A stretch of DNA of 61,489 bases, filler included, from Circinaria calcarea (lineage: Eukaryota): the NCBI GenBank assembly GCA_051942165.1. It is 7 parts of 7 records of this genome, joined end to end, with 100 filler letters (N's around TTAATTAATTAA, not from the genome) between each part and the next. Parts side by side here need not be neighbours in the genome. Positions count along the whole stretch, not along the records: positions 35,214 to 43,906 come from JAVECS010001070.1; 6 more parts are not named here. One strand, given 5' to 3'. A model generated the notes under the pieces. It saw nothing but the letters and a program-made list of their open reading frames with translations. It had not been told where the DNA came from and ran no database searches. The translations under genes were made by a program, and so were the position numbers. Shown piece by piece: positions 1,974 through 44,006 of this stretch. Numbering within the stretch: position 1 is the stretch's first letter; each line of letters begins with the position of its first letter.

Positions 1974-2624
1974 ATGCTTCCCAGTCCATTGAACATGCCT
2001 AAATGGCAAGTCCATTACCTGGGGGACCCAAAAGGCGCTTTCACTGACCACCTGCCTAGGCTCGAAGAGAACTCCCACCTCCTGAAACCCCCAATCAACA
2101 ACTACTGCGTCTACAAAAAGGACGTCACAGTAATGGTACCGCTCCCTTTTATCTTGAAACCCCGCTCTGTTGGACTCCCTGACTCCATCGCTCACCCCAA
2201 CCAGATCGTCGGCGGCCCCAACGCCCGAACAGACTACCACATCAACGAGACCTGCGAATGGTTCTACCAATACCGCGGCAGCATGCTTCTCAAAGTCGTC
2301 GACACCGGCACCCATAGGGACATCCCGATCCGGGAAGGTGAAATGTTCCTCCTGCCACCCAACACGCCGCATAACCCTATTCGCTTCGCCGACACGGTGG
2401 GCATCGTAATCGAGCAGCCCCGGCCCGCAGACAGCAAGGACCGGCTGAGGTGGTATTGCCAAAGCTGCGGGGAAGTCGTGCATGAAGCGGCGTTTCACTG
2501 TACGGATTTGGGAACGCAGATCAAGGAAGCGGTGGTGGGCTTTGAAAAGGACAAGGAAGCGAGGACGTGTGGGAAATGCGGGGAGGTGGTGGAGATGGTG
2601 CCGAAGGGCGTGGTACAGCCGTGA
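1974..2624 (+). CDS. BNA1: 3-hydroxyanthranilate 3,4-dioxygenase (kynurenine/NAD pathway); introns 2006-2059 (GC-AG) and 2136-2204
   Basis: Spliced protein [61 protein letters not shown], RWYCxxC and C-terminal CxxC rubredoxin-like sites. Confidence 0.95.
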
Positions 2625-3184
2625 GGGTATGAGCCTGTGGGGAACACAAAGTGTGCGTGATGGGAAATGTATAACGACGTGTACGATGATGTCAATCTAG
2701 ACCATTAGGGCAGTGTGGTCGATATTTGTACCTATTACATGCCTGTTTCTACAACGGTATCTGGCAAATTAACTGTTTACTCTCGCATGTCGGCTGGCAC
2801 TGTTGCCACTAATGACACTGCTCAGCCCTCCCGGACATCCGATGGTAAAAACATGTTTGAAATACTTTTGGAAGCTTCGCCCAGAGAACAGCAAGGGACC
2901 TGATCTTGGCCCCCTTGGTCCGATCTTCACAGTCTCGTGCTTATTTTGCCAGACGCCGTCGTGAGAGTATGGAGCAAAAGACTCGACACTTTTTCCGCCT
3001 AAAAAGCTTAGACCTGTCCAATGACTTTTGCTCCATACTCTTACGTTAGCTATCATGTACATAGCCAATCTTCCACGAACTCGTCACCATGTTCTTGTAA
3101 AACTAGGAATAAATGTTTGCACTTGAACCAGATAGTTGGCATAGCCTCTTGGAATATCGTTGACACAAGACGAAAGATTCCACA

Positions 3185-5558
3185 CTATCGTACACTCATC
3201 TCTTTCGTCTCTCTCTCCAATGCAAGACTTTGCACCTCGAATCCTTCTTCCCCTTCCTCCTTATACGCCGGGAGTCCGACAAATTTGTTGATCCAATTCA
3301 AAACGACCGTATGCCAGACAAGACTGTTCTCCTCCTTGAGGACCCAGTGATTCTCATCCGGAAACGTCAGAAATCTGCTCTCGACCCCCCGTTCCTGCAA
3401 GACGTTGAAGGCCGCCAAGCCCTCGCTGATAGGTAAGCGGAAATCCAATCCGTTGTGGATGACTAGTTCAGGCGTGCTCCAGTTACCGGTGTGTCTTGAT
3501 GGGTCCCAACGATCCCACTTCTCTTGCGCGGTCCAGACCGGTCCGCCGAGATCGTGGTTAGGAAAGTATTGCTCATCAGAGGACATTTGGTTACCCATGC
3601 TGAAAACGCCGTCGTGACAGACCAGAGCCTTGAGTTTGCGCCCGAGGGGGTGGCCGTTTATCCAATTCATCATGTAACCGCCGTAAGACGCGCCGAGGGC
3701 GACTGCCCGATCGGTGTCTACATAGGACAGGTTGTCTTTAATGTACTCGAATCCGTTGACAAGATCTTCGTACGGGAGGCTTCCCCAGTTATTTTTAATT
3801 GCGTCGCAGAAGTCCTGGCCGTAACCGGTGCTGCCAGTTGGGTTGGGTGCAATCGCAATGTAGCCTTGCTCTGCGAATACTGCGGGATTCCAGCGGGTGC
3901 TCCATTGATCTCCCCATGCGCCTTGGGGCCCACCATGTATCAGATACGCCAGGGGATACTTCTTGCCCTCTACAAAGTTGGAAGGCTTGATAACCCATGC
4001 GTGGACCTTGTAGTCACCTGACCCCTTGAACCAAATATCGGAAACCTGCTGTTTTCCCAAGCCGAAGGAGCTTCCATTGCGCGAGAACGAGGAAACTTGC
4101 TTGATACTTGATGGATTAGCCGGATTGATGATACTGAAAACACTACTGTCTATCAGGCTACTGCCAGATATGAACAAGTCAGGAGAATCTGCCGCAAGTG
4201 GGTAAACTTCCGATATGTAACCTGCGTCGGTTACCTTCTCCGGTAACGCATCCAGATCCGTTGGCGTTGCTGGAACATCAACCTTGAACAAAATATTTCG
4301 CCCTTCTTCTTCTGCTGTCAAGAACAGGCTCTTGCCGTCGTTGCTCCATAAGATGCTCTGCGGACTTCGATCCCACATTCCTTTGCCGTCGTTTGACTTT
4401 AAGACCTCGGTTGCAGCTGACGTTTTCGTAAGATCGGGAATTAGAACGAGTCTGTTCTTGTCACTCTCATACCCATTCTTCTTCATGTTAAGAAAGGCCG
4501 CGGCTTGGCCGTTTGGCGAAATTGCAGGAGAACTGCATGCTCCTTCGAGATCCTCAACTTCTACCTTCACCGGCTTTGACGATGTGGCGGTTGTGAAACT
4601 TAATACAGGCAAATAGTAGAAGTGACATGTAGTATTAGTGGCAGGATTCAGGGTTGGATCCTTTGCGACGAATGCGATGCCTTTCTTGCTAATATCGAAA
4701 TGTCCAGAGTCGCCGAATGGTGGGATGGGGGACTCCAGGTATGTGTTCTCAAGCGCGTTCATCACAGGCGAGAGAGTGTAACGGCCACTGGATCCCGTAA
4801 CGTGCGACTTTGGTGTTTGGAGAACGCCATACCATATTGAGTTCCTGTTCGGACTCACATATTTGTCCCAGTGGCGTACCATGAGAAAGTCATAGACTCG
4901 ACCGGTGGAGTACGTCTTAGGCGCATTCTCGGGGTTGTATAGATCACCATCTGGCTTGGCCTTCCCAACAAAGGCGATGGCTACACGGCCTTTGTCCAGA
5001 ACTTTGAGCTTCGCGTCCGATACTGGTCCGGGCACAGTCCCCGCAACATATGTTTCCCGTGCTCCTTCAGTGCTCCCGATTATCAGCTCCGTGCTGCCTT
5101 TCTCCCCTTCCCTAAACCATAATATTTCATTTTCCAGCCAATGAGGCTCACTTGTCTTCTCCTCGTTAGTCACCAGTGTCGATTGGCCGTTGCCAATGTC
5201 TAAAATTCTAATCTCCCTTATCTTTTTGTGCGACTCGAATGAATACGTTGAAACAGTGTATAAGGCCAAGGTGCCTCTTGCATTAGGTGTTGCACAGGAA
5301 CGGCGAGGTGCGCTAAGGAGAACTCTAGTTCACGGATATTAGAGACCACGCCTAAGAATGTTTGCTGGCCTGTGCTCACTCGGGGGTAAACTTGGTAGCA
5401 CGAATTGTCATCTCTGCTGATTCCTGTGGGAGTTTGGATTGAATGGTAGCTGAAGGAGAGCGGTAGACAAGCAGAGAAACGAAAAGCGCAATGTAAAGGA
5501 GACTGACGGCGGATATGCCGGAGAAGATGGCGAGATATATGGTCCTTGTCGCAATCAT
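3185..5558 (-). CDS. DPP5: Dipeptidyl-peptidase V-type S9 serine peptidase; intron 5325-5379; alternative start at MTIRATKFTPE
   Basis: FTPEVLLSAPRRS after splicing, VRHWDKY, LIHGGPQGAW, GASYGG nucleophile, DFR and FPDENHW catalytic motifs. Confidence 0.9.
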
Positions 5559-35213: not shown

Positions 35214-36457
35214 CTTCCTTCCCACCCCCCGCGCCCCCCAAGACCAAGAATTCCCCAATTCTTGGTCTTGGGGGGAGCGTGGGGTGGGAAGGAAGGCAAA
35301 AAGGGAGACAAGAGGATTTGTAAAAGGGGGATTTGTGTTTGGTGGGCAAAGTAAGCCAAAGATAGGGTAGAAAGGAACGAAACGTAAGTGGAGAACCAAT
35401 GGAGGGAGAAACAATACCTTGAAACCCCAGCTCTGATGATGTAAATCGTGAAACTTGGCCCCGTTGGCATTGAGGGAGCGGAAGGGATCCCAGGGAAACA
35501 CGTAGCCGCAGTGGTCGCTGATGGTCTTGATTGTCGCCAACGAGCCGAAAATCATGCTCTGGCGGACCGAGAATCCAGCCAGGGCGTTCCCCATCATGAA
35601 GCTAAGGATATCGAGGAAGAGACTTTCGAGCCAGTGGGCGTATACCGCCCCATATGCATAGGGAACATAAAGGCGATGATGTTGAGCGTGGACGATACCT
35701 GCGGATCGGGGGTTCAGTAATGTACCCTGTCCCAAGGAGATTCCGTGTGGAGGGAGGGCACCGGCGGCGAAACGAACAAGGGGAAAAACTTACGGTAGAG
35801 CGTTTTGTTCACATGGCAAAGTCGATGGGTAAAGTATATCCAAGTATCCACCACCGCTAAAGCGATGAAGAACTGCACGGCGGGAACAAGGAAAGTTTCG
35901 ACAAGGTTCGCCACGAAAAGTTCGGCCGAGGTAAAGCCCAGAGGTTGGGACGAGTTCAATCCGGCAAACGACGCAGGCCCACCGGCGAGGAATTGGGCAA
36001 GCGTTGCACTTTTGCTAGACGTGGCAAAGGCAAGGCCTTTTGCGTCGATTCCGACAGAAGCCAGTATCCAAGGGACCAAAGTGCGGGCGTGCCTCACTCG
36101 TCCTGCCCATCGGTGTACATCACAGCTCTTGTTGGCCACCATCTCCGGCCCGGCACCGTAACTTAAAAGCAATCCGATAGAAATTTGCATCAGGTGATAG
36201 CGAGCGACGCCTTGAAAACATTCGAGCCGGGACACATGATTGCGTTTGAGGTCCTCCTCCGTCGGATGGATGCGGTATTGCGTGAACAGCTGCTGCCTGT
36301 CGAGCCAGTAGAAAAACCCGCAGGCGACAATATACACGACGGTGGGCAAGACAGTAGCGAGAACGGCATCGGATATTCCAGATATCAGTGCTGGTTGGGG
36401 GATCGGTGTGCAGGACGGGGTTGATGAAGCATTGAAATCGTATGTTGCATTCAACAT
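35214..36457 (-). CDS. Fatty acid hydroxylase superfamily, sphinganine C4-hydroxylase (Sur2)-like and diverged; intron 35699-35793; 3' end missing or unclear at the contig edge
   Basis: QYRIHPTEEDLKRNHVSR; His boxes THRLCH, HAQHHRLYVPYAYGA and HDLHHQSWG; DHCGY.FPWDP. Confidence 0.85.
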
Positions 36458-37543
36458 GATGGGATATCAAAATGGAGCTGACGGGGAGCAATGATGGACG
36501 ACGGTCGATTGAGGAACAGTACAGCTTCGAACAGCTTTCAGTCGAAATTCAAGTTAAAGGGATACACTCGATGACAAGCGCTGCGAATTGGGGCCGCAAG
36601 CCATGCATTCTCCGACATCATCCATGTCCAGAAGGACCTCACTTGATTCGCGTATCGAGTAGACAGAGGAGAGCGATCTACTGCACTCTGTATTTCCCCA
36701 CATGCGGCTGGGAGGAGATCAATTCGGCGGAATTCGGTCATGCAGACTCGCGGATTAGAGATTTTGCTGCCGGGACTAAAAGTACCTGGGCGACAAGCTA
36801 AAAATGGAGAAACATACCTTAGGTAACGATGAAATGAAATCAATGTCAATACGGAATCAATCAAGAAGCCACTCTCGACTAATAATTGTTGCCCCCTACA
36901 CTTGTATTCGGGCTGGTCCACATGGCAGGGAGCGTCGAGTTGATGCAAGGTGACACTTACTGGCTCTTCTCTCGCTCAACTAGCACAGTCGCACCCCAAT
37001 TGGCTTAAGATGCGAAGCTTTTCGTTTTCATATTCTCGTATTTTATTTTAATCCTACGCAGGCTCGCTGACCGAGTGATAGAATAAATACGAGAAGCAAA
37101 ATCCTGGTGCCTGTCCTTACGATACGAAAACTGCTAAGTATTTTGTTAAGGGTGTTGTCCGCGGCTGTTCTGCTGGCAAGAAAAGTGTGCCTGCTCTGTT
37201 AGAATGTGCAATCACGGCACAGTAGAAATGCATTGGTATCAATACGAATCGGTGGTACTCCATAAATTTATGGAGCGGAAGTAACAAGGTGGGCATAGCC
37301 CCTATATGCCATAATTGTAATGACAGTAGTGTTTGCGCAAACAGCAGAAGTACTAAACCCCCATGAACCCCTGAATGCTCTAAGCCGTGTGTGCGCTAAG
37401 CCATAGTAGTTTGAATCGAACAAGCAAGGGGCTGAATCGTGACACTACCCGCGCTCTATTCTCCTGCAGCTTTCCCCCTTTTCCATCTCCCGGTTTGGTT
37501 CTCCCATTGAAACCCGAGATAGATATCGAGTGAATCCGATTTG

Positions 37544-38092
37544 CTAGTGGAAATAGTCGAGGTAGGAGAAGGCTTCGATAAGGCTGTCTGGAGAGCCAGC
37601 TTTGGCTTTTTCAATGGCAGCATTGGTAACTGCTTTAGGAAGAACTGCAGTGCCGTCCTCAGATCGCTTGTGAAAGTAATCGAGGTAGGAGAAGGCTTCG
37701 ATAAGGCTGTCTGGAGAGCCGGCTTTAGCTTTTTCAATGGCAGCATTGGTAACTGCTTTAGGAAGAATTGCAGTGCCGTCCTCAGATCGCTTGTGAAAGT
37801 AGTCGAGGTAGGAGAAGGCTTCGATAAGGCTGTCTGGAGAGCCGGCTTTGGCTTTTTCAATGGCAGCATTGGTAACTGCTTTAGGAAGAACTGCAGTGCC
37901 GTCCTCAGATCGTTTATGAAAGTAATCGAGGTAAGAGAAGGCTTCGATAAGGCTGTCTGGAGAGCCGGCTTTGGCTTTTGCAATAGCAGTAGATGTGACT
38001 GCCTCAGGAAGCTTTGGAGATTCTGCTTTAGGAGTTGGAGCACCGACCGCCAGGGCAACGGAGAAGGCGACGATGATAAGAGAGCCTTTCAT
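37544..38092 (-). CDS. Secreted Kex2-processed repeat protein: candidate fungal RiPP (dikaritin) precursor with 4 cores ending SLIEAFSYLDYFH
   Basis: Signal peptide MKGSLIIVAFSVALAVG; 41-aa (123-bp) repeat KRSEDGTAVLPKAVTNAAIEKAKAGSPDSLIEAFSYLDYFH; differences between core copies are synonymous in this frame; adjacent DUF3328 genes. Confidence 0.9.
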   Translation of the reverse strand: MKGSLIIVAFSVALAVGAPTPKAESPKLPEAVTSTAIAKAKAGSPDSLIEAFSYLDYFHKRSEDGTAVLPKAVTNAAIEKAKAGSPDSLIEAFSYLDYFHKRSEDGTAILPKAVTNAAIEKAKAGSPDSLIEAFSYLDYFHKRSEDGTAVLPKAVTNAAIEKAKAGSPDSLIEAFSYLDYFH

Positions 38093-38538
38093 GTTTGCGA
38101 GTTCGAAAATAGATTTGGCGAAGGAAGTTCAAAGGTAGGCTCAAATGAAGTTCAAAGATAGATTCAAATGAAGGAAGTAGATCAAAGCCGACTGGAGAAG
38201 GTGGATGGCCAGGAAATCATACGGGCTATAGCCCATATTTATACTTGATCTGCTGCAATATGGGCGCTTCTATTCATGCCGGTATATTGACTCGAACCTG
38301 GGCATCTTAGAATTGCTTCCCTACCTCCGCGGCCTGTAGTGCGAGCCATTAGTCCTGTTGCCACTATTCCGTGTATCTGACACGACAATCCAGCTTTTGG
38401 ACTGAATTGCACTTTGGGAGTTGATTGTAACCATCAGTAGAAAAAGGGCAAATGCGGTTACTGACGGAATGTTAGAGGCGGTGTCCTCTTTGGACATGGC
38501 TATCCTTCGAATTATAAAGACATGACAGGGACAAGGCC

Positions 38539-38835
38539 TCCAATAGTGCAGCCGGTGCAATGCAGTGCAGTGAACTGCACTGTTTTGGCAGTTCAGCTCC
38601 GTACTGCACTAGCAGGGCAAGGGGGCTTGAACTGCATTGGCAGTGTTTACTGATAGTGCAGTTAATCTCGCTAAACGGCTGAGCGTAGGGTTGTACCATT
38701 AGTGTAAAAATCATCTGCACTAGCAGTGTAGTGCAGTACACTACCATTGAACTGTATTATTAGTGCATTGCGGGCTTGGCAGTGCAGACTGCACCGTGAA
38801 CTGCCAATGCGCATTGCACCGGCTGCGCTATTCGA
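38539..38835. mobile_element. MITE-like inverted-repeat element rich in TGCA/TGCAGT motifs
   Basis: tccaatagtgcagccggtgcaatgc (38539-38563) versus gcattgcaccggctgcgctattcga (38811-38835), 2 mismatches; no clear TSD. Confidence 0.6.
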
Positions 38836-39108
38836 GGATTGGGGCTGAATGTAATCATCATGAAAACATGACAGGGATGCAGTTAGCTGAAAATACTTAC
38901 ACATCCACTGTTTCGACGGTGTACCCGAGCAGTTACGTACATTATGAAAACGTGCAGCGGAAAGAAGTACAATCTCGAATCCCTCTCCGCTGTTATATAA
39001 TCCACCTTCGGGGATAGCTATACGCCCACGTTTTCTCTCCGTCTATAAACTGTACTCTTCATTCTTACTCACTCACTCAAAGAGATTCTGAGACAAAACT
39101 TTCTAACG

Positions 39109-40130
39109 ATGTTGCCCGCCGGGGAAGTCTCTCATAGCACCAAGTATGAAGAATTAGGGTCAGAGGAGAAAGAGGAGAATGGGTTTCTTCTTCCAACCAC
39201 TGAAAAAGCTTATGCGAAGAGAAGGATGAATTCGAGAAGCCATGTTTGGATATTATATCTGACAAATGCGGTGACTCTGATCGCTGTTGTGATTCTGGCA
39301 TTAGTTGCCAAGGAAGCTCGTAGGGATCCAAGTCTCGTAGGTGTTTACTGTGAGACTATTTTCGGAGGTTGCAGTAAGAACATTTGCTAATAGAACATAC
39401 CAGCACCGGCAAGATCTGCTGTCGAATATGTGGTACACCGGTTTGATTCCGCATTTGAGAACAAAACTGAGTATATGGGCGATCCTACTCCGGAGATCGA
39501 TGCTCGATGGTTAGACTTGGCAGCTTGTAGGAAGTTCTGGCTTCTCGCCGTGGCTGATGTAGAATCCTGACTGTTAAGACAGACGGAGTGTCCAAAATTT
39601 CTGATTCAGAAGCCGCCCAGCTTTTCGAGCCTACCATGTCTAATCTCGACAACGAGTCGGAGCATTGGGTTACCCTCGACGTGTTCCATCAGTTGCACTG
39701 CCTCTACAACATCCGAAAATATTTCCACCAGGACTATTACCCATTCCGCCGAGAATATCATGCAAACGGCACCGAAAACAAAGATACTATACCATACGAG
39801 CACTGGGGTTAGTACAGCTTACTCCCTACCTCTTCAACCTTCCCTGACAATTTCGGTCTTCCAGACCACTGTATAGATTCCATTCGGCAAAGCCTTATGT
39901 GCTCGGCTGACATCACTCCCATCTCATTCCATATTGACAAACGAGGGTCGGGTATCTTTCCCAAGTTACAGGCTACTCACGTGTGTCGCAATTTCGACAA
40001 AATCACAGAGTGGGCCAAAGAGCACTTTGCTGGGAATAATGTGAGGTTTCAGTTCAAAGAAGGTGATGCGTTATTAGATTACTATAGGAGTAATGAAGCA
40101 GATATTCGTCAGAACGGTGGAAGTAAGTAG
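39109..40130 (+). CDS. DUF3328/UstYa-family oxidase 1; introns at about 39350-39402, 39528-39582 and 39808-39864
   Basis: N-terminal TM helix, YSPARSAVEY, MGDPTPEIDARW, LDVFHQLHCLYNIRK, HWDHCIDSIRQSLMCSADITP, HVCRNFDKITEWA; two HxxHC motifs. Confidence 0.92.
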
Positions 40131-40287
40131 GTAGAGGCGAGAAGGGTATGGGCTCGGACATTTTCGCCAAGGAAATTAAGTATTCTCAGAAATACGCAGA
40201 TTTCAGCGTATCTAAATTCTAAACTCTGTACTACGTATATCCAAGCACTGCATCCAGTTATCTGAGGTTCGAATAGAAATCTCTATA

Positions 40288-40430
40288 TCCCTTCGACTGT
40301 TGCTCAGGCAGGATGGACCGTGCGTTTTTTGAATACAAGGTTAGGATTGGCCAGTTAGGTTGGCACGAACCAGAAGTTGGTCCGTTCAAAAAACGCACGG
40401 TCCATCCTGCCTGAGCAACAGTCGAAGGGA
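40288..40430. mobile_element. 143-bp MITE with perfect 46-bp TIRs flanked by TA (Tc1/mariner-type target site)
   Basis: tcccttcgactgttgctcaggcaggatggaccgtgcgttttttgaa (40288-40333) is the exact reverse complement of 40385-40430; TA at 40286-40287 and 40431-40432. Confidence 0.85.
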
Positions 40431-40938
40431 TAGCTTAATATTTAACCTGAGAACCGAATTCCCCGTCGTTGTTCACCTCCTCTCGGTAAGAAAACTTAGC
40501 TTCGTTGCGACCCAAGGATATGTCGAGACTCTTACGACAGACTATGCTTGCAGGTCCTCACCGACTCGTTGGCCGCACCGTCCTTACTAAGTTGAAAAAT
40601 ATTAGCAGTTCAGCGAGCAGCGGACGCCTATTTTACTTGACTACTATCCCATGGCATGGCGGCTTGGCCAGGAACGCTTACAGTCGGATGGCGTTACATT
40701 GAAAAGTCGTTCCCTGACGGTCTCAGAAACGTGGCATCGCGGCTACTTGGATCTGAAAGTTTGGGGCTGAGGATGCGAAAAGCTTATTCGGGGTATATCC
40801 GAGGCTAATCTTCAGCTACAGTTCCTTATCTCTCAGTAGGGAGGAAGCCATTCGCTCAACCCGAATGCCCGTCTGCTCTTCGTTTATTGATTTCCTTTCC
40901 TCGATTCTTCTTGGTCGTTTTATTATACGTTAATCAAC

Positions 40939-41931
40939 ATGAAATTCTTATCCAAGGTCTACATACCTGTCCCATTGTCCGAACAGGATTCCAATGAATC
41001 TAGCTCTTCACTTTCCGAAGGGCCACACGGTGATGAGGAACGGGCAGAGGAGTTGAAACGTTGGAAAAAGATCCGCCTTTCGGCAATCACCCTCCTGCAC
41101 TTCGCAACTCTCCTCTTCGCATTATCCGTGGTCGTATTCGTCGCAGCAATCATCAGGAAACCCAGCGACTCGGAATGCACACGACAGGTTTCGACATACT
41201 GTAAGCGAGAATGCCACTGCTTGTATTGGAGATGGCGGTATCTCAGTCAACTAACGAATGGCAGCACCTGCTATTTCTGCCGTCGAATATGAAGACTACG
41301 ACTTCGAGAACTCTTTTGCACATCCAACGAAGTATCGAGGACCACCGACAGCCACACTCGAAAGTGAGTGGAATAGACTTTGGCAATGTAGGTGACCAGC
41401 GTCTCCGGTGAATGCTCGATTTTGATCAAGTGTAGATGGTTATGTCAATATACCAGAGAACGATCTCGTTTTCTTGAATAGATCAAACTCGAAGAAAGAG
41501 TGGCAGCGTCTTCCTCCCGAGCATGGTGGAGGATACGCGGGTCTGATAGACGTGTTCCATCAGCTTCATTGTTTGGTACCAAGCCACCCCTTCCACTCTT
41601 GTTTGGCTTTCTTCAGTACTTTACTGACTATAATTCGCAGAATTATATCCGGCAATACACCTGGGGTGACTTCTATGACCGACACGGCATGAAAAATGAT
41701 CTCATATCAACGCCTGTTGGAAATAGAATGCATGTCGATCACTGTATCGAGACACTACGGCTAGTGCTAATGTGCCATTCTGACACGACGCCGGTTTTGC
41801 TGGAAGTAGATCTGATGGCGGCAAAGGGCCGTCGTGCTGACTTTAATGCACACCATAAATGTCGAAATTTTACTAAGTTGCAGGAATGGATGGATAAGAA
41901 CGTCAAGGTCGAAATGTACCATCATGAATAA
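40939..41931 (+). CDS. DUF3328/UstYa-family oxidase 2; introns at about 41201-41264, 41387-41435 and 41576-41640
   Basis: N-terminal TM helix, YSPAISAVEY, YRGPPT..ESEW, IDVFHQLHCLNYIRQ, HVDHCIETLRLVLMCHSDTTP, HKCRNFTKLQEW. Confidence 0.93.
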
Positions 41932-42279
41932 AATGGTACAGGATATAGGCATAAAGGTACAAAGATGAATCACTTTTACAGAATTTTGAGGCCTAGGGGT
42001 CAACGCCAAATTATTTATGTTATGGCGCTTTGGCGCCGGGCAATCCCCTAGGGTTATCTAGAAGTGGGGTTGGTTTGATAACTACCTCTTAAGTTGTTGC
42101 TCAGGGGGACAGAACCGTGCACGCCGTATTAATAAGGGGGTTTAGTTTCCCCGCACAAATTACTACTAAAATAAGCATCTCTTCTCCACCGATTGGCCAG
42201 AATTAAAGTTCTATTAGTGCCCGAAACACCCTGTAGCGCGCACAGTTCGTGCTGCCTAAGTGGGCAGCTTAAGGGATAT

Positions 42280-42739: not shown

Positions 42740-42985
42740 GAGCTGAAAGTTGAAAGCCGCCTTGCAGGTCGGATAACTTCATATCAGCTAATTCAAGCTT
42801 AAAGTTAAAAATCGCCGTGCAGGTCAGCTTTCATGCAGTGGGTACGGGACGACTTCGTGTCAGCGAGCTGAATCAAGCTGAAGTTAAAGTCGCCGTATAG
42901 ATCGGCTTGCGTACAGTGGGCACCGGACGACTTCATATCAGCTAATTCGAGCTGAAAGATCACATCGCCGTGCAGCTCAGCCCTC
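42740..42985. repeat. Degenerate tandem repeat, about 3 units of 75-78 bp
   Basis: Recurring acgacttcatatcagctaattc(a/g)agct.aaag....tcgccgtgcag units. Confidence 0.65.
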
Positions 42986-43193
42986 AGCACCGTTTCGCGT
43001 GACTCCTCCGCCCCCCGGTCTTCGCACCGGGTTTAGTCTCGTAAGAAGAAAATGGTGGTCTTTGCCATATTCACAACTAAGAGTTCAACCCATATATTTG
43101 TTCTCCTCCGCTCAGGCCACCCCAAATCCTTATTTTCCAGGCAAAGCCACTTCACTCCCAAAACCTCTCTGCATTCTCGCCATCAACGATAGC

Positions 43194-43388
43194 ATGCATC
43201 TCTTCCTTTCCGCCATCTTGCTCTCGTGCATTACTTGCGCCTTCTCCTTTCCTCTCTCGACTCGCCAGCAGCTCGAGAGCTCAGACACTCCCACCGCCCT
43301 CTCTCGCAAGTTCGTTTCCGCCTATCAGGATGAAATCGACGCCGCTGATCCAATCGCTGTGCTTGGAGATCGTTCCGCTCCACTCTAG
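43194..43388 (+). CDS. Small secreted peptide (64 aa)
   Basis: MHLFLSAILLSCITCAFSFP signal peptide followed by ..LSRKFVSAYQDEIDAADPIAVLGDRSAPL; pyrimidine-rich 5' leader. Confidence 0.55.
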   Translation: MHLFLSAILLSCITCAFSFPLSTRQQLESSDTPTALSRKFVSAYQDEIDAADPIAVLGDRSAPL

Positions 43389-44006
43389 TCACCGGGTGCA
43401 AAGGCAACTAACTGCCGGTTGAACTTGGGGGCATTCGCGAAGGAAAGGACACAGGATATGGACGTTACTTAGAAGGGATAGGGCCTCAGAGAGACTGTAT
43501 AACATTGCTATACTATTCTTTGCCCAGAAAGCGGTTAGCTGCATGTTATTCTGAGCCACAGCGAATATATACTTGGGCGACGTTCGAGAGATTAGCCACT
43601 GCACCGGCTGCACTATTGGAAGCTCTGGAAGTAGGAAACGAAAGAAGAAGAGTCAATTCGGGCGCGTTTTCCCTTGCCTCACCCTCACCCTCACCCTCAC
43701 CCTCACCCCATCCATCCGCTCCCTTCCCGGTCTCGAAACCCAGATTCGTCAGTTAGCCTCTCGCCCGCGGTGATAGGTATAGAACGTTCCGAGAACGTTT
43801 CGATAGGTACGACGACAGTCGGCCGGAGAGCAGGGTGCGGAAGGAGAATATGAACTGCGCGAAGTGTAAATATCCCCCAAATCTGCCCCCCATCCAATCC
43901 CTCCTCNNNNNNNNNNNNNNNNNNNNNNNNNNNNNNNNNNNNNNNNNNNNTTAATTAATTAANNNNNNNNNNNNNNNNNNNNNNNNNNNNNNNNNNNNNN
44001 NNNNNN

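Follow-up and report, generated by a model that had tools for sequence, protein, structure and literature searches.

The window analysed here is the whole stretch of 61,489 nucleotides from Circinaria calcarea, in which separate contigs of about 8.7 kb are joined with N-linkers between them; the whole assembly, fungal by its spliceosomal introns and DUF3328 genes, comprises 31.5 Mb in 5512 contigs. The locus under study lies on one contig (35214-43906, 8693 bases), which alone was taken as its neighbourhood, and the DNA past the N-linkers belongs to other contigs. Reading of the ORFs identified an intronless, KEP-type precursor gene of 182 aa at 37544-38092 on the minus strand, which has one match within its own genome. 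Its ATG has an A at -3, and a TATA box found by sequence reading (TATAAATA, 38236-38243, minus strand) stands about 150 nt 5' of it, followed by a pyrimidine-rich leader. The protein begins with a signal-peptide-like N-terminus of residues 1-17 (38042-38092, minus strand; Lys2 and a 7-residue hydropathy of 2.1-3.0 over residues 6-15), for which we infer a predicted signal cut at G17|A18, the G|AP junction. The rest is dominated by a 123-nt tandem array (37543-37989, 3.6 copies, 95% matches, 0 indels). On the minus strand, unit 1 (37916-38041) starts with AP-TP-KA and carries a diverged leader before the first core copy, and units 2 (37793-37909), 3 (37670-37786), and 4 (37547-37663) each correspond to a predicted 39-aa Kex2/Kex1 fragment; three KR sites part them (37910-37915, 37787-37792, and 37664-37669, minus strand). 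A previous sequence-only reading of this DNA had proposed the same ORF and architecture, with a signal-like start, KR sites, and a TAG-ended last copy, all of which we confirmed. Its 41-aa repeat holds for the period of 123 nt, but the full 41-aa units number three, the first unit being partial and diverged. KEPs are defined in PMC7329392 by a signal peptide, three or more tandem repeats of 8-100 aa bounded by dibasic sites, and cleavage by kexin; here, three 39-aa units and one partial unit lie between such sites.

Each unit ends in the 13-residue sequence SLIEAFSYLDYFH, which is present in four copies (37916-37954, 37793-37831, 37670-37708, and 37547-37585, minus strand). After three copies comes KR; the fourth stops at TAG, in register with the AAG (Lys) codon. 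Because KR/Kex1 trimming and the terminal stop give the same end, the C-terminus is ...YFH, as had been claimed. A TAG-ended last copy, at positions where other copies meet KR, also occurs at three of five other KEP-like loci of this genome (L048, L055, and L056); it is an ordinary trait, though one that fixes the C-terminus. All five aromatic residues of the unit fall within its last eight positions, and the two Tyr per core are invariant in 4/4 copies.

Two UstYa/DUF3328 genes are located on the same contig, 1.0 and 2.8 kb from the precursor and transcribed divergently from it. Gene 1 (39109-40130, plus strand, 284 aa) has four exons at 39109-39349, 39404-39526, 39583-39807, and 39865-40130, and gene 2 (40939-41931, plus strand, 271 aa) has four exons at 40939-41200, 41265-41387, 41436-41575, and 41641-41931. 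Both are GT-AG models without internal stop, and in both PF11807 matches exon 4 (E 4.7e-11 and 3.7e-17, respectively). The two proteins share 34% identity, and each has a transmembrane helix (19-residue hydropathy of about 2.5 for the membrane anchor) and a pair of HxxHC motifs (HQLHC and HWDHC in gene 1, HQLHC and HVDHC in gene 2). DUF3328 proteins are described as dicopper enzymes that are anchored in the membrane and face the lumen, and AprY as a cyclase that depends on copper and oxygen (PMC12435403); the double HxxHC is reported as a mark of RiPP-related DUF3328 (PMC12048977), and enzymes of this family tailor non-ribosomal compounds too (PMC12435403). Dikaritins are defined by an ether bridge that joins Tyr to a second side chain (PMC11253845). 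The locus shows the class-defining dikaritin enzyme adjoining the precursor (two PF11807 genes), the double HxxHC with an N-terminal membrane anchor, and Tyr in the repeated core.

The contig also carries a fatty-acid-hydroxylase-family gene (35214-36457, minus strand). At the very contig start is a 39-nt inverted repeat with a 4-nt loop (35214-35295), possibly a fold-back of the assembly by which the hydroxylase gene is cut off. On the 8.7-kb contig, ORFs and Pfam revealed no recognisable transporter, reductase, tyrosinase, or peptidase, with the remaining ORF lists judged by eye; the contig stops 2.3 kb to one side of the precursor and 5.8 kb to the other and may cut the cluster short. A dipeptidyl-peptidase-like gene (3185-5329) was rejected as a cluster member, as it sits on another contig. 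A 64-aa ORF with a signal-like start and without a Pfam match (43194-43388, plus strand), 1.3 kb past gene 2, may encode a small secreted peptide or be noise. Repetitive DNA was seen at several places: a MITE-like element with 27-nt terminal inverted repeats (38536-38837) lies in the divergent promoter of the precursor and gene 1, and its ends have at least 40 genome matches, including 43597-43623; a 147-nt element with 48-nt perfect inverted arms and TA at both ends (40286-40432) lies between the UstYa genes, with a related arm at 42095-42120; and a degenerate 78-nt tandem repeat (42770-42986) is found 3' of gene 2. The contig ends in an alternating GAA/TTC run (about 43780-43803), which resembles a heat-shock element; the Hsp104-like gene next in the window is on another contig.

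We then compared the repeat copies at the DNA level. Five core columns vary (TCT/TCC, GAT/GAC, TAC/TAT, TTT/TTC, and CAT/CAC), and all five changes are silent, with a chance of 0.0002 when all changes are considered and 0.004 for transitions only; the synonymous-only variation that had been reported for these columns is therefore correct, and the V/I substitution reported in the leader is real. Among units 2-4, seven codons are variable, of which one changes a residue in the precursor frame vs six in the antisense frame and six in the other open minus-strand frame. Expression of the antisense ORF had been named as the outcome that would speak against the sequence-only reading, and these counts do not favour it. 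Given the silent-only variation, the TATA box, and the ATG context, the minus-strand ORF is therefore the constrained frame, and the antisense frame is very unlikely to be. Units 2-4 contain one replacing change in 39 codons, a near-identity that may reflect recent duplication, and unit 1 has an altered leader next to an unaltered aromatic end.

The earlier claim of purifying selection holds for the frame, in which silent changes indicate constraint, but not specifically for the 13-mer. In all four copies, the leader has five silent and five replacing changes vs five and none in the core (Fisher p=0.10; one column, the silent third position of an E/K codon, is left out of the replacing count of the leader), and in the full units alone the ratios are 2:1 and 3:0 (p=1.0). 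These counts show no significant relaxation of the leader relative to the core. The GSPDSLIEAF codons are DNA-identical across copies and KAKA differs silently, which extends the invariance eight residues further upstream into a 21-aa block, KAKAGSPDSLIEAFSYLDYFH (copy 1 at 37916-37978, minus strand, recurring every 123 nt). Because this block is 21 residues long, conservation sets no core start at SLIEAF; the core start at Ser that had been proposed is arbitrary, since the block spans it, and Phe is better supported.

The other UstYa loci of the genome bear on this boundary. PF11807 gave 71 exon-level matches on 36 contigs, indicating a large UstYa family. A repeat-ORF scan of all 36 PF11807 contigs (40 stretches, 273 kb, longer contigs in part), limited by fragmentation and introns, detected a repeat ORF on 6/36, and UstYa genes are thus often without a visible precursor. 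The five other KEP-like loci, of four types, lie beside UstYa genes on C883 (L039), C1349 (L041), C1887 (L048), C3542 (L055), and C1815 (L056). L048 (7 repeats) and L055 (9 repeats) are near-identical, in L041 RR sites enclose several AKVAYDE-type cores, and the signal peptides of these loci are seemingly on a separate exon. The context [DE]-A-[VIF]-x-Y occurs in three of the four other precursor types (EAIAY, DAVTY, and EAVVY; the fourth reads AKVAY), and the present unit reads EAFSY, a fit seen in 0.9% of shuffles. In addition, the residues of FSYLDY are spaced as in asperipin-2a (FYYTGY), and this F-x-Y-x-x-Y pattern arises in 0.24% of 39-mer shuffles and 3.6% of last-8 shuffles; these motif tests are post hoc, having been chosen after the sequence had been seen. 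The asperipin-2a spacing and the shared context therefore favour a core from Phe over the 13-mer. By analogy, the core FSYLDYFH, bicyclised through Tyr ethers, is likelier, with predicted boundaries at 37547-37570 for the TAG-ended last copy and at 37670-37693, 37793-37816, and 37916-37939 for the other copies (minus strand).

Asperipin-2a is bicyclic, with ethers from Tyr side chains to beta-carbons (PMC6514808), one of which is Tyr-O to Phe-Cbeta (PMC12186524), and the Phe-carbon-linked Tyr, followed by Thr-Gly and hence Tyr3, is itself beta-oxygenated (PMC9609662). If the locus is of the dikaritin type, we tentatively propose, on this analogy, that the product is FSYLDYFH or FSYLDY minus 4 H, with the ethers Tyr3-O-Cbeta(Phe1) and Tyr6-O-Cbeta(Tyr3), for which the computed [M+H]+ values are near 1087.45 and 803.32, respectively. 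In asperipin-2a, the second ether would likewise come from Tyr6. The core may instead be longer, either SLIEAFSYLDYFH after an Asp cut or the entire 39-mer cyclised at its tail, or the link may be of a non-asperipin type, such as Tyr-His or Tyr-Ile; this is a form of the dikaritin explanation rather than a competitor to it, and we consider it possible though doubtful. D precedes SLIEAF here, as an acidic ED motif flanks the ustiloxin core (PMC6514808), SLIEA is invariant, epichloecyclins have Tyr linked to the N-terminal residue, possibly through nitrogen (PMC10540207), and two UstYa enzymes and the extra Phe-His tail leave room for other chemistry. However, KAKAGSPD is invariant too, so invariance marks no boundary, and the exact spacing and shared context point to the Phe start.

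Any short product requires extra proteolysis after Kex2, because a unit is 39 aa plus KR and Kex2 by itself is unable to expose Phe. To this extent, the second protease that had been postulated is needed; the leader as quoted, however, is 26 aa, not about 30, and reaches 31 aa if the core begins at Phe. The leader may plausibly serve enzymes as a recognition sequence. Ste13 removes X-A/X-P dipeptides in alpha-type pheromone precursors, after each KR. The resemblance to its substrates did not survive inspection: X-P/X-A dipeptides are confined to the stretch behind the signal peptide (AP-TP-KA, followed by ES blocks), units 2-4 start SE-DG, and Ste13 has no place to begin on the repeats. With this SE-DG start and no MF_alpha Pfam match, the ORF does not qualify as an alpha-type mating pheromone; an ESM Atlas match to an MF_alpha cluster (score 0.80) was dismissed as chance level. 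The genome carries a kexin-type gene on a different contig. The missing second protease is a class-wide gap and not special to this locus, because the proteases removing the ustiloxin core flanks are likewise given as unidentified in PMC6514808 and removal of the GigA follower as unexplained in PMC10540207.

We also searched for relatives of the enzymes. Gene 1 forms a clade with Cytospora mali and Discula destructiva proteins (the latter CAN8099823.1; support 1.0, 57-64% identity), and its closest relative is KUI54253.1 of Cytospora (Valsa) mali var. pyri, which is 57% identical and colinear. The adjacent accession number, KUI54252.1, is listed as a stand-alone KEP flagged 'DUF3328 in vicinity' (Table S2, PMC7329392). 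The Cytospora locus is thus like the present one in having a KEP with DUF3328 nearby and the UstYa protein closest to gene 1, and this pairing, from accession order alone, supports the present one independently. It differs in that KUI54252.1 did not turn up in the precursor homology searches; Table S2 gives accessions without sequences (PMC7329392). For the V. mali allele KUI70043.1, the same table has no catalogued KEP under the prefix KUI700. The best full-length relatives of gene 2 are 41-55% identical, and it clusters with proteins of Elsinoe australis and a single unnamed one; its relatives fall under nine accession prefixes, of which one has a KEP in the catalogue at a close number, nine numbers away. 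No solved structure matched the UstYa alignment. Twenty metagenome loci, all distant, are related to gene 1, and two of them hold repeat precursors of other types, each with a UstYa gene on the contig: L089 has six copies of a ...VYVHGSYGYDKAKR unit (2092-2740, plus strand), and L077 has two copies of DDIFYPQREGWG (near 4463, minus strand).

Scoring of 8000 candidates of 100-319 aa gave no homologue of the precursor itself at E<=1. A phmmer search of 1.84 billion representatives gave six matches at E<=0.001, and the four inspected are unrelated long repeat proteins (506-4487 aa, 17-33% identity) with periodicity alone in common. A pattern search of metagenome contigs yielded 593 matches, none of them confirmed. 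The best ESM Atlas score (0.85, low recognition) is a lead only, and Pfam matches on the precursor (E1_dh, Drf_DAD, and others) left no passing stretch, their scores being summed over repeats. A degenerate core pattern recovered the four known copies and eight two-mismatch matches vs four control matches; four of the eight were inspected, and none is inside a repeat precursor. As no precursor homologue was found, the Tyr pattern is known from this one locus. Precursors without relatives are common among KEPs, 2560 of 7878 being stand-alone in the survey of PMC7329392. The literature search returned no report tied to the present locus, the full texts not having been searched for the peptide sequence itself, and none on the Cytospora locus tags.

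From its sequence, the locus most likely belongs to a known fungal cyclic-peptide class, with an unusually long leader before each copy, and we consider it probable that it is a dikaritin-type fungal RiPP precursor with its UstYa enzymes. The precursor would enter the ER, where Kex2 would cut after KR and Kex1 strip the KR, giving four peptides that end in ...YFH. The membrane-anchored dicopper UstYa enzymes would oxidise the aromatic end to form Tyr ether rings, the second enzyme closing the second ring or adding another oxidation. Removal of the 26-31-residue leader would fall to proteases encoded elsewhere, which could cut after Asp or Ala or trim as aminopeptidases until stopped at the first ring. 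The product is probably a secreted defence or interaction metabolite. We also modelled the repeat. The AlphaFold single-sequence model has two helices per unit joined at GSP (pLDDT 63.5, pTM 0.44); at this low confidence, it is equally compatible with a helical leader or with a linear peptide acting whole. When one 39-aa unit was modelled together with a dimer of the Cytospora orthologue, used as a stand-in and with the alignment unused, the outcome (score 0.00) spoke neither for nor against a complex. The long helical part might be a true leader and the locus a dikaritin subtype, in which the invariant KAKAGSPDSLIEA docks on two divergent UstYa enzymes for sequential ring closure on FSYLDYFH, and another link or oxidation may be added at the Phe-His tail. 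We regard this as an unlikely case; if true, [DE]-A-[VIF]-x-Y, which precursors otherwise unrelated share in this genome, would be a rule by which UstYa enzymes or the trimming protease read their substrates in general. A three-gene locus would make UstYa substrate recognition and flank trimming directly testable.

Other explanations account for parts of these data. The precursor could be a linear KEP, from which Kex2 and Kex1 free an unmodified 39-aa helix-turn-helix peptide that works whole while the UstYa genes serve another substrate. Such peptides are documented, for example the Rep1 repellents and candidalysin (PMC7329392, PMC9769878); the whole unit is conserved, with no significant difference between leader and core, and the modelled helix pair at GSP would suit such a peptide. 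However, two intact UstYa genes adjoin the precursor, and the orthologue of the nearer one is, by accession order, also beside a KEP. Moreover, the 39-aa unit is weakly amphipathic (11-residue moment of at most 0.44 in the computed windows), the near-identical units 2-4 are perhaps a recent duplication, and unit 1 kept its aromatic end while its leader changed. We therefore judge the linear peptide improbable. The model, all-helical with regular repeats, is also what an intact secreted alpha-helical repeat protein would be predicted to show, and three of the four phmmer matches inspected look like helical, TPR-like repeat proteins; yet KR closes every unit of this secreted-type protein in a genome with a kexin, the pTM is low, and the matches share nothing but periodicity, which makes this account very improbable. 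Finally, the antisense frame (37523-38161, plus strand) or no frame at all might be functional, the repeat being a gene in decay or not coding at all. Of the rival frames, the antisense one runs open over 212 codons and the second minus-strand one over 210, but the former is open because the sense ORF has no TTA, CTA, or TCA codons, and it has no ATG before 37916. In addition, the signal-like peptide, start context, and TATA box are all on the minus strand, and the variable codons of units 2-4 argue against both frames, leaving this account scarcely credible.

We compared the locus, read as a dikaritin system, with the known ones. DUF3328 is near 22% of 7878 KEPs, and because thousands of KEP-DUF3328 loci are predicted (PMC7329392), one extra predicted locus is ordinary; a 2022 review counts only five characterised dikaritins (PMC10512285). 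The present locus is a convenient test case, with three compact genes, a single invariant core, and an asperipin-like bicycle of predictable mass, and its non-core part is long enough for leader deletion or swap experiments on UstYa substrate recognition and flank trimming. The asperipin-2a cluster of Aspergillus flavus (aprA, aprY, aprT, and aprR) likewise has a KEP precursor with F-x-Y-x-x-Y and an adjacent UstYa cyclase, and, as described in PMC6514808, PMC12048977, and PMC12186524, it is without a tyrosinase, none being recognised on the present contig either. In contrast, the asperipin repeat is 8 aa and the present one 39 aa plus KR (41-aa period); the present core has Ser, Leu-Asp, and a Phe-His tail; and a single AprY, a reductase, and a transporter stand against two UstYa genes here, with neither of the other two seen on the contig. 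The ustiloxin and phomopsin systems (UstA, UstYa/UstYb, and UstQ; PhomA) share the signal peptide (here a signal-like start), KR-separated repeats, DUF3328 pair, and, as predicted here, flank removal by further proteases, whereas their core motif Y-x-I-x (PMC7329392) is absent here (the Tyr contexts are YLDY and YFH), and a tyrosinase, methyltransferase, or other tailoring gene was not seen on the present contig. The epichloecyclin system (GigA and GigB) resembles the present one in its four long repeats of 27 aa, mostly non-core (PMC10540207); unlike here, where the aromatic part comes last, GigA has the core first and then a follower, and its methyltransferase and kexin genes have no counterpart on the present contig. 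At 3-5 times the unit length of ustiloxin, phomopsin, and asperipin (13, 14, and 8 aa, respectively), the long unit is the distinctive trait of this locus, for which the 27 aa of GigA are a partial precedent.
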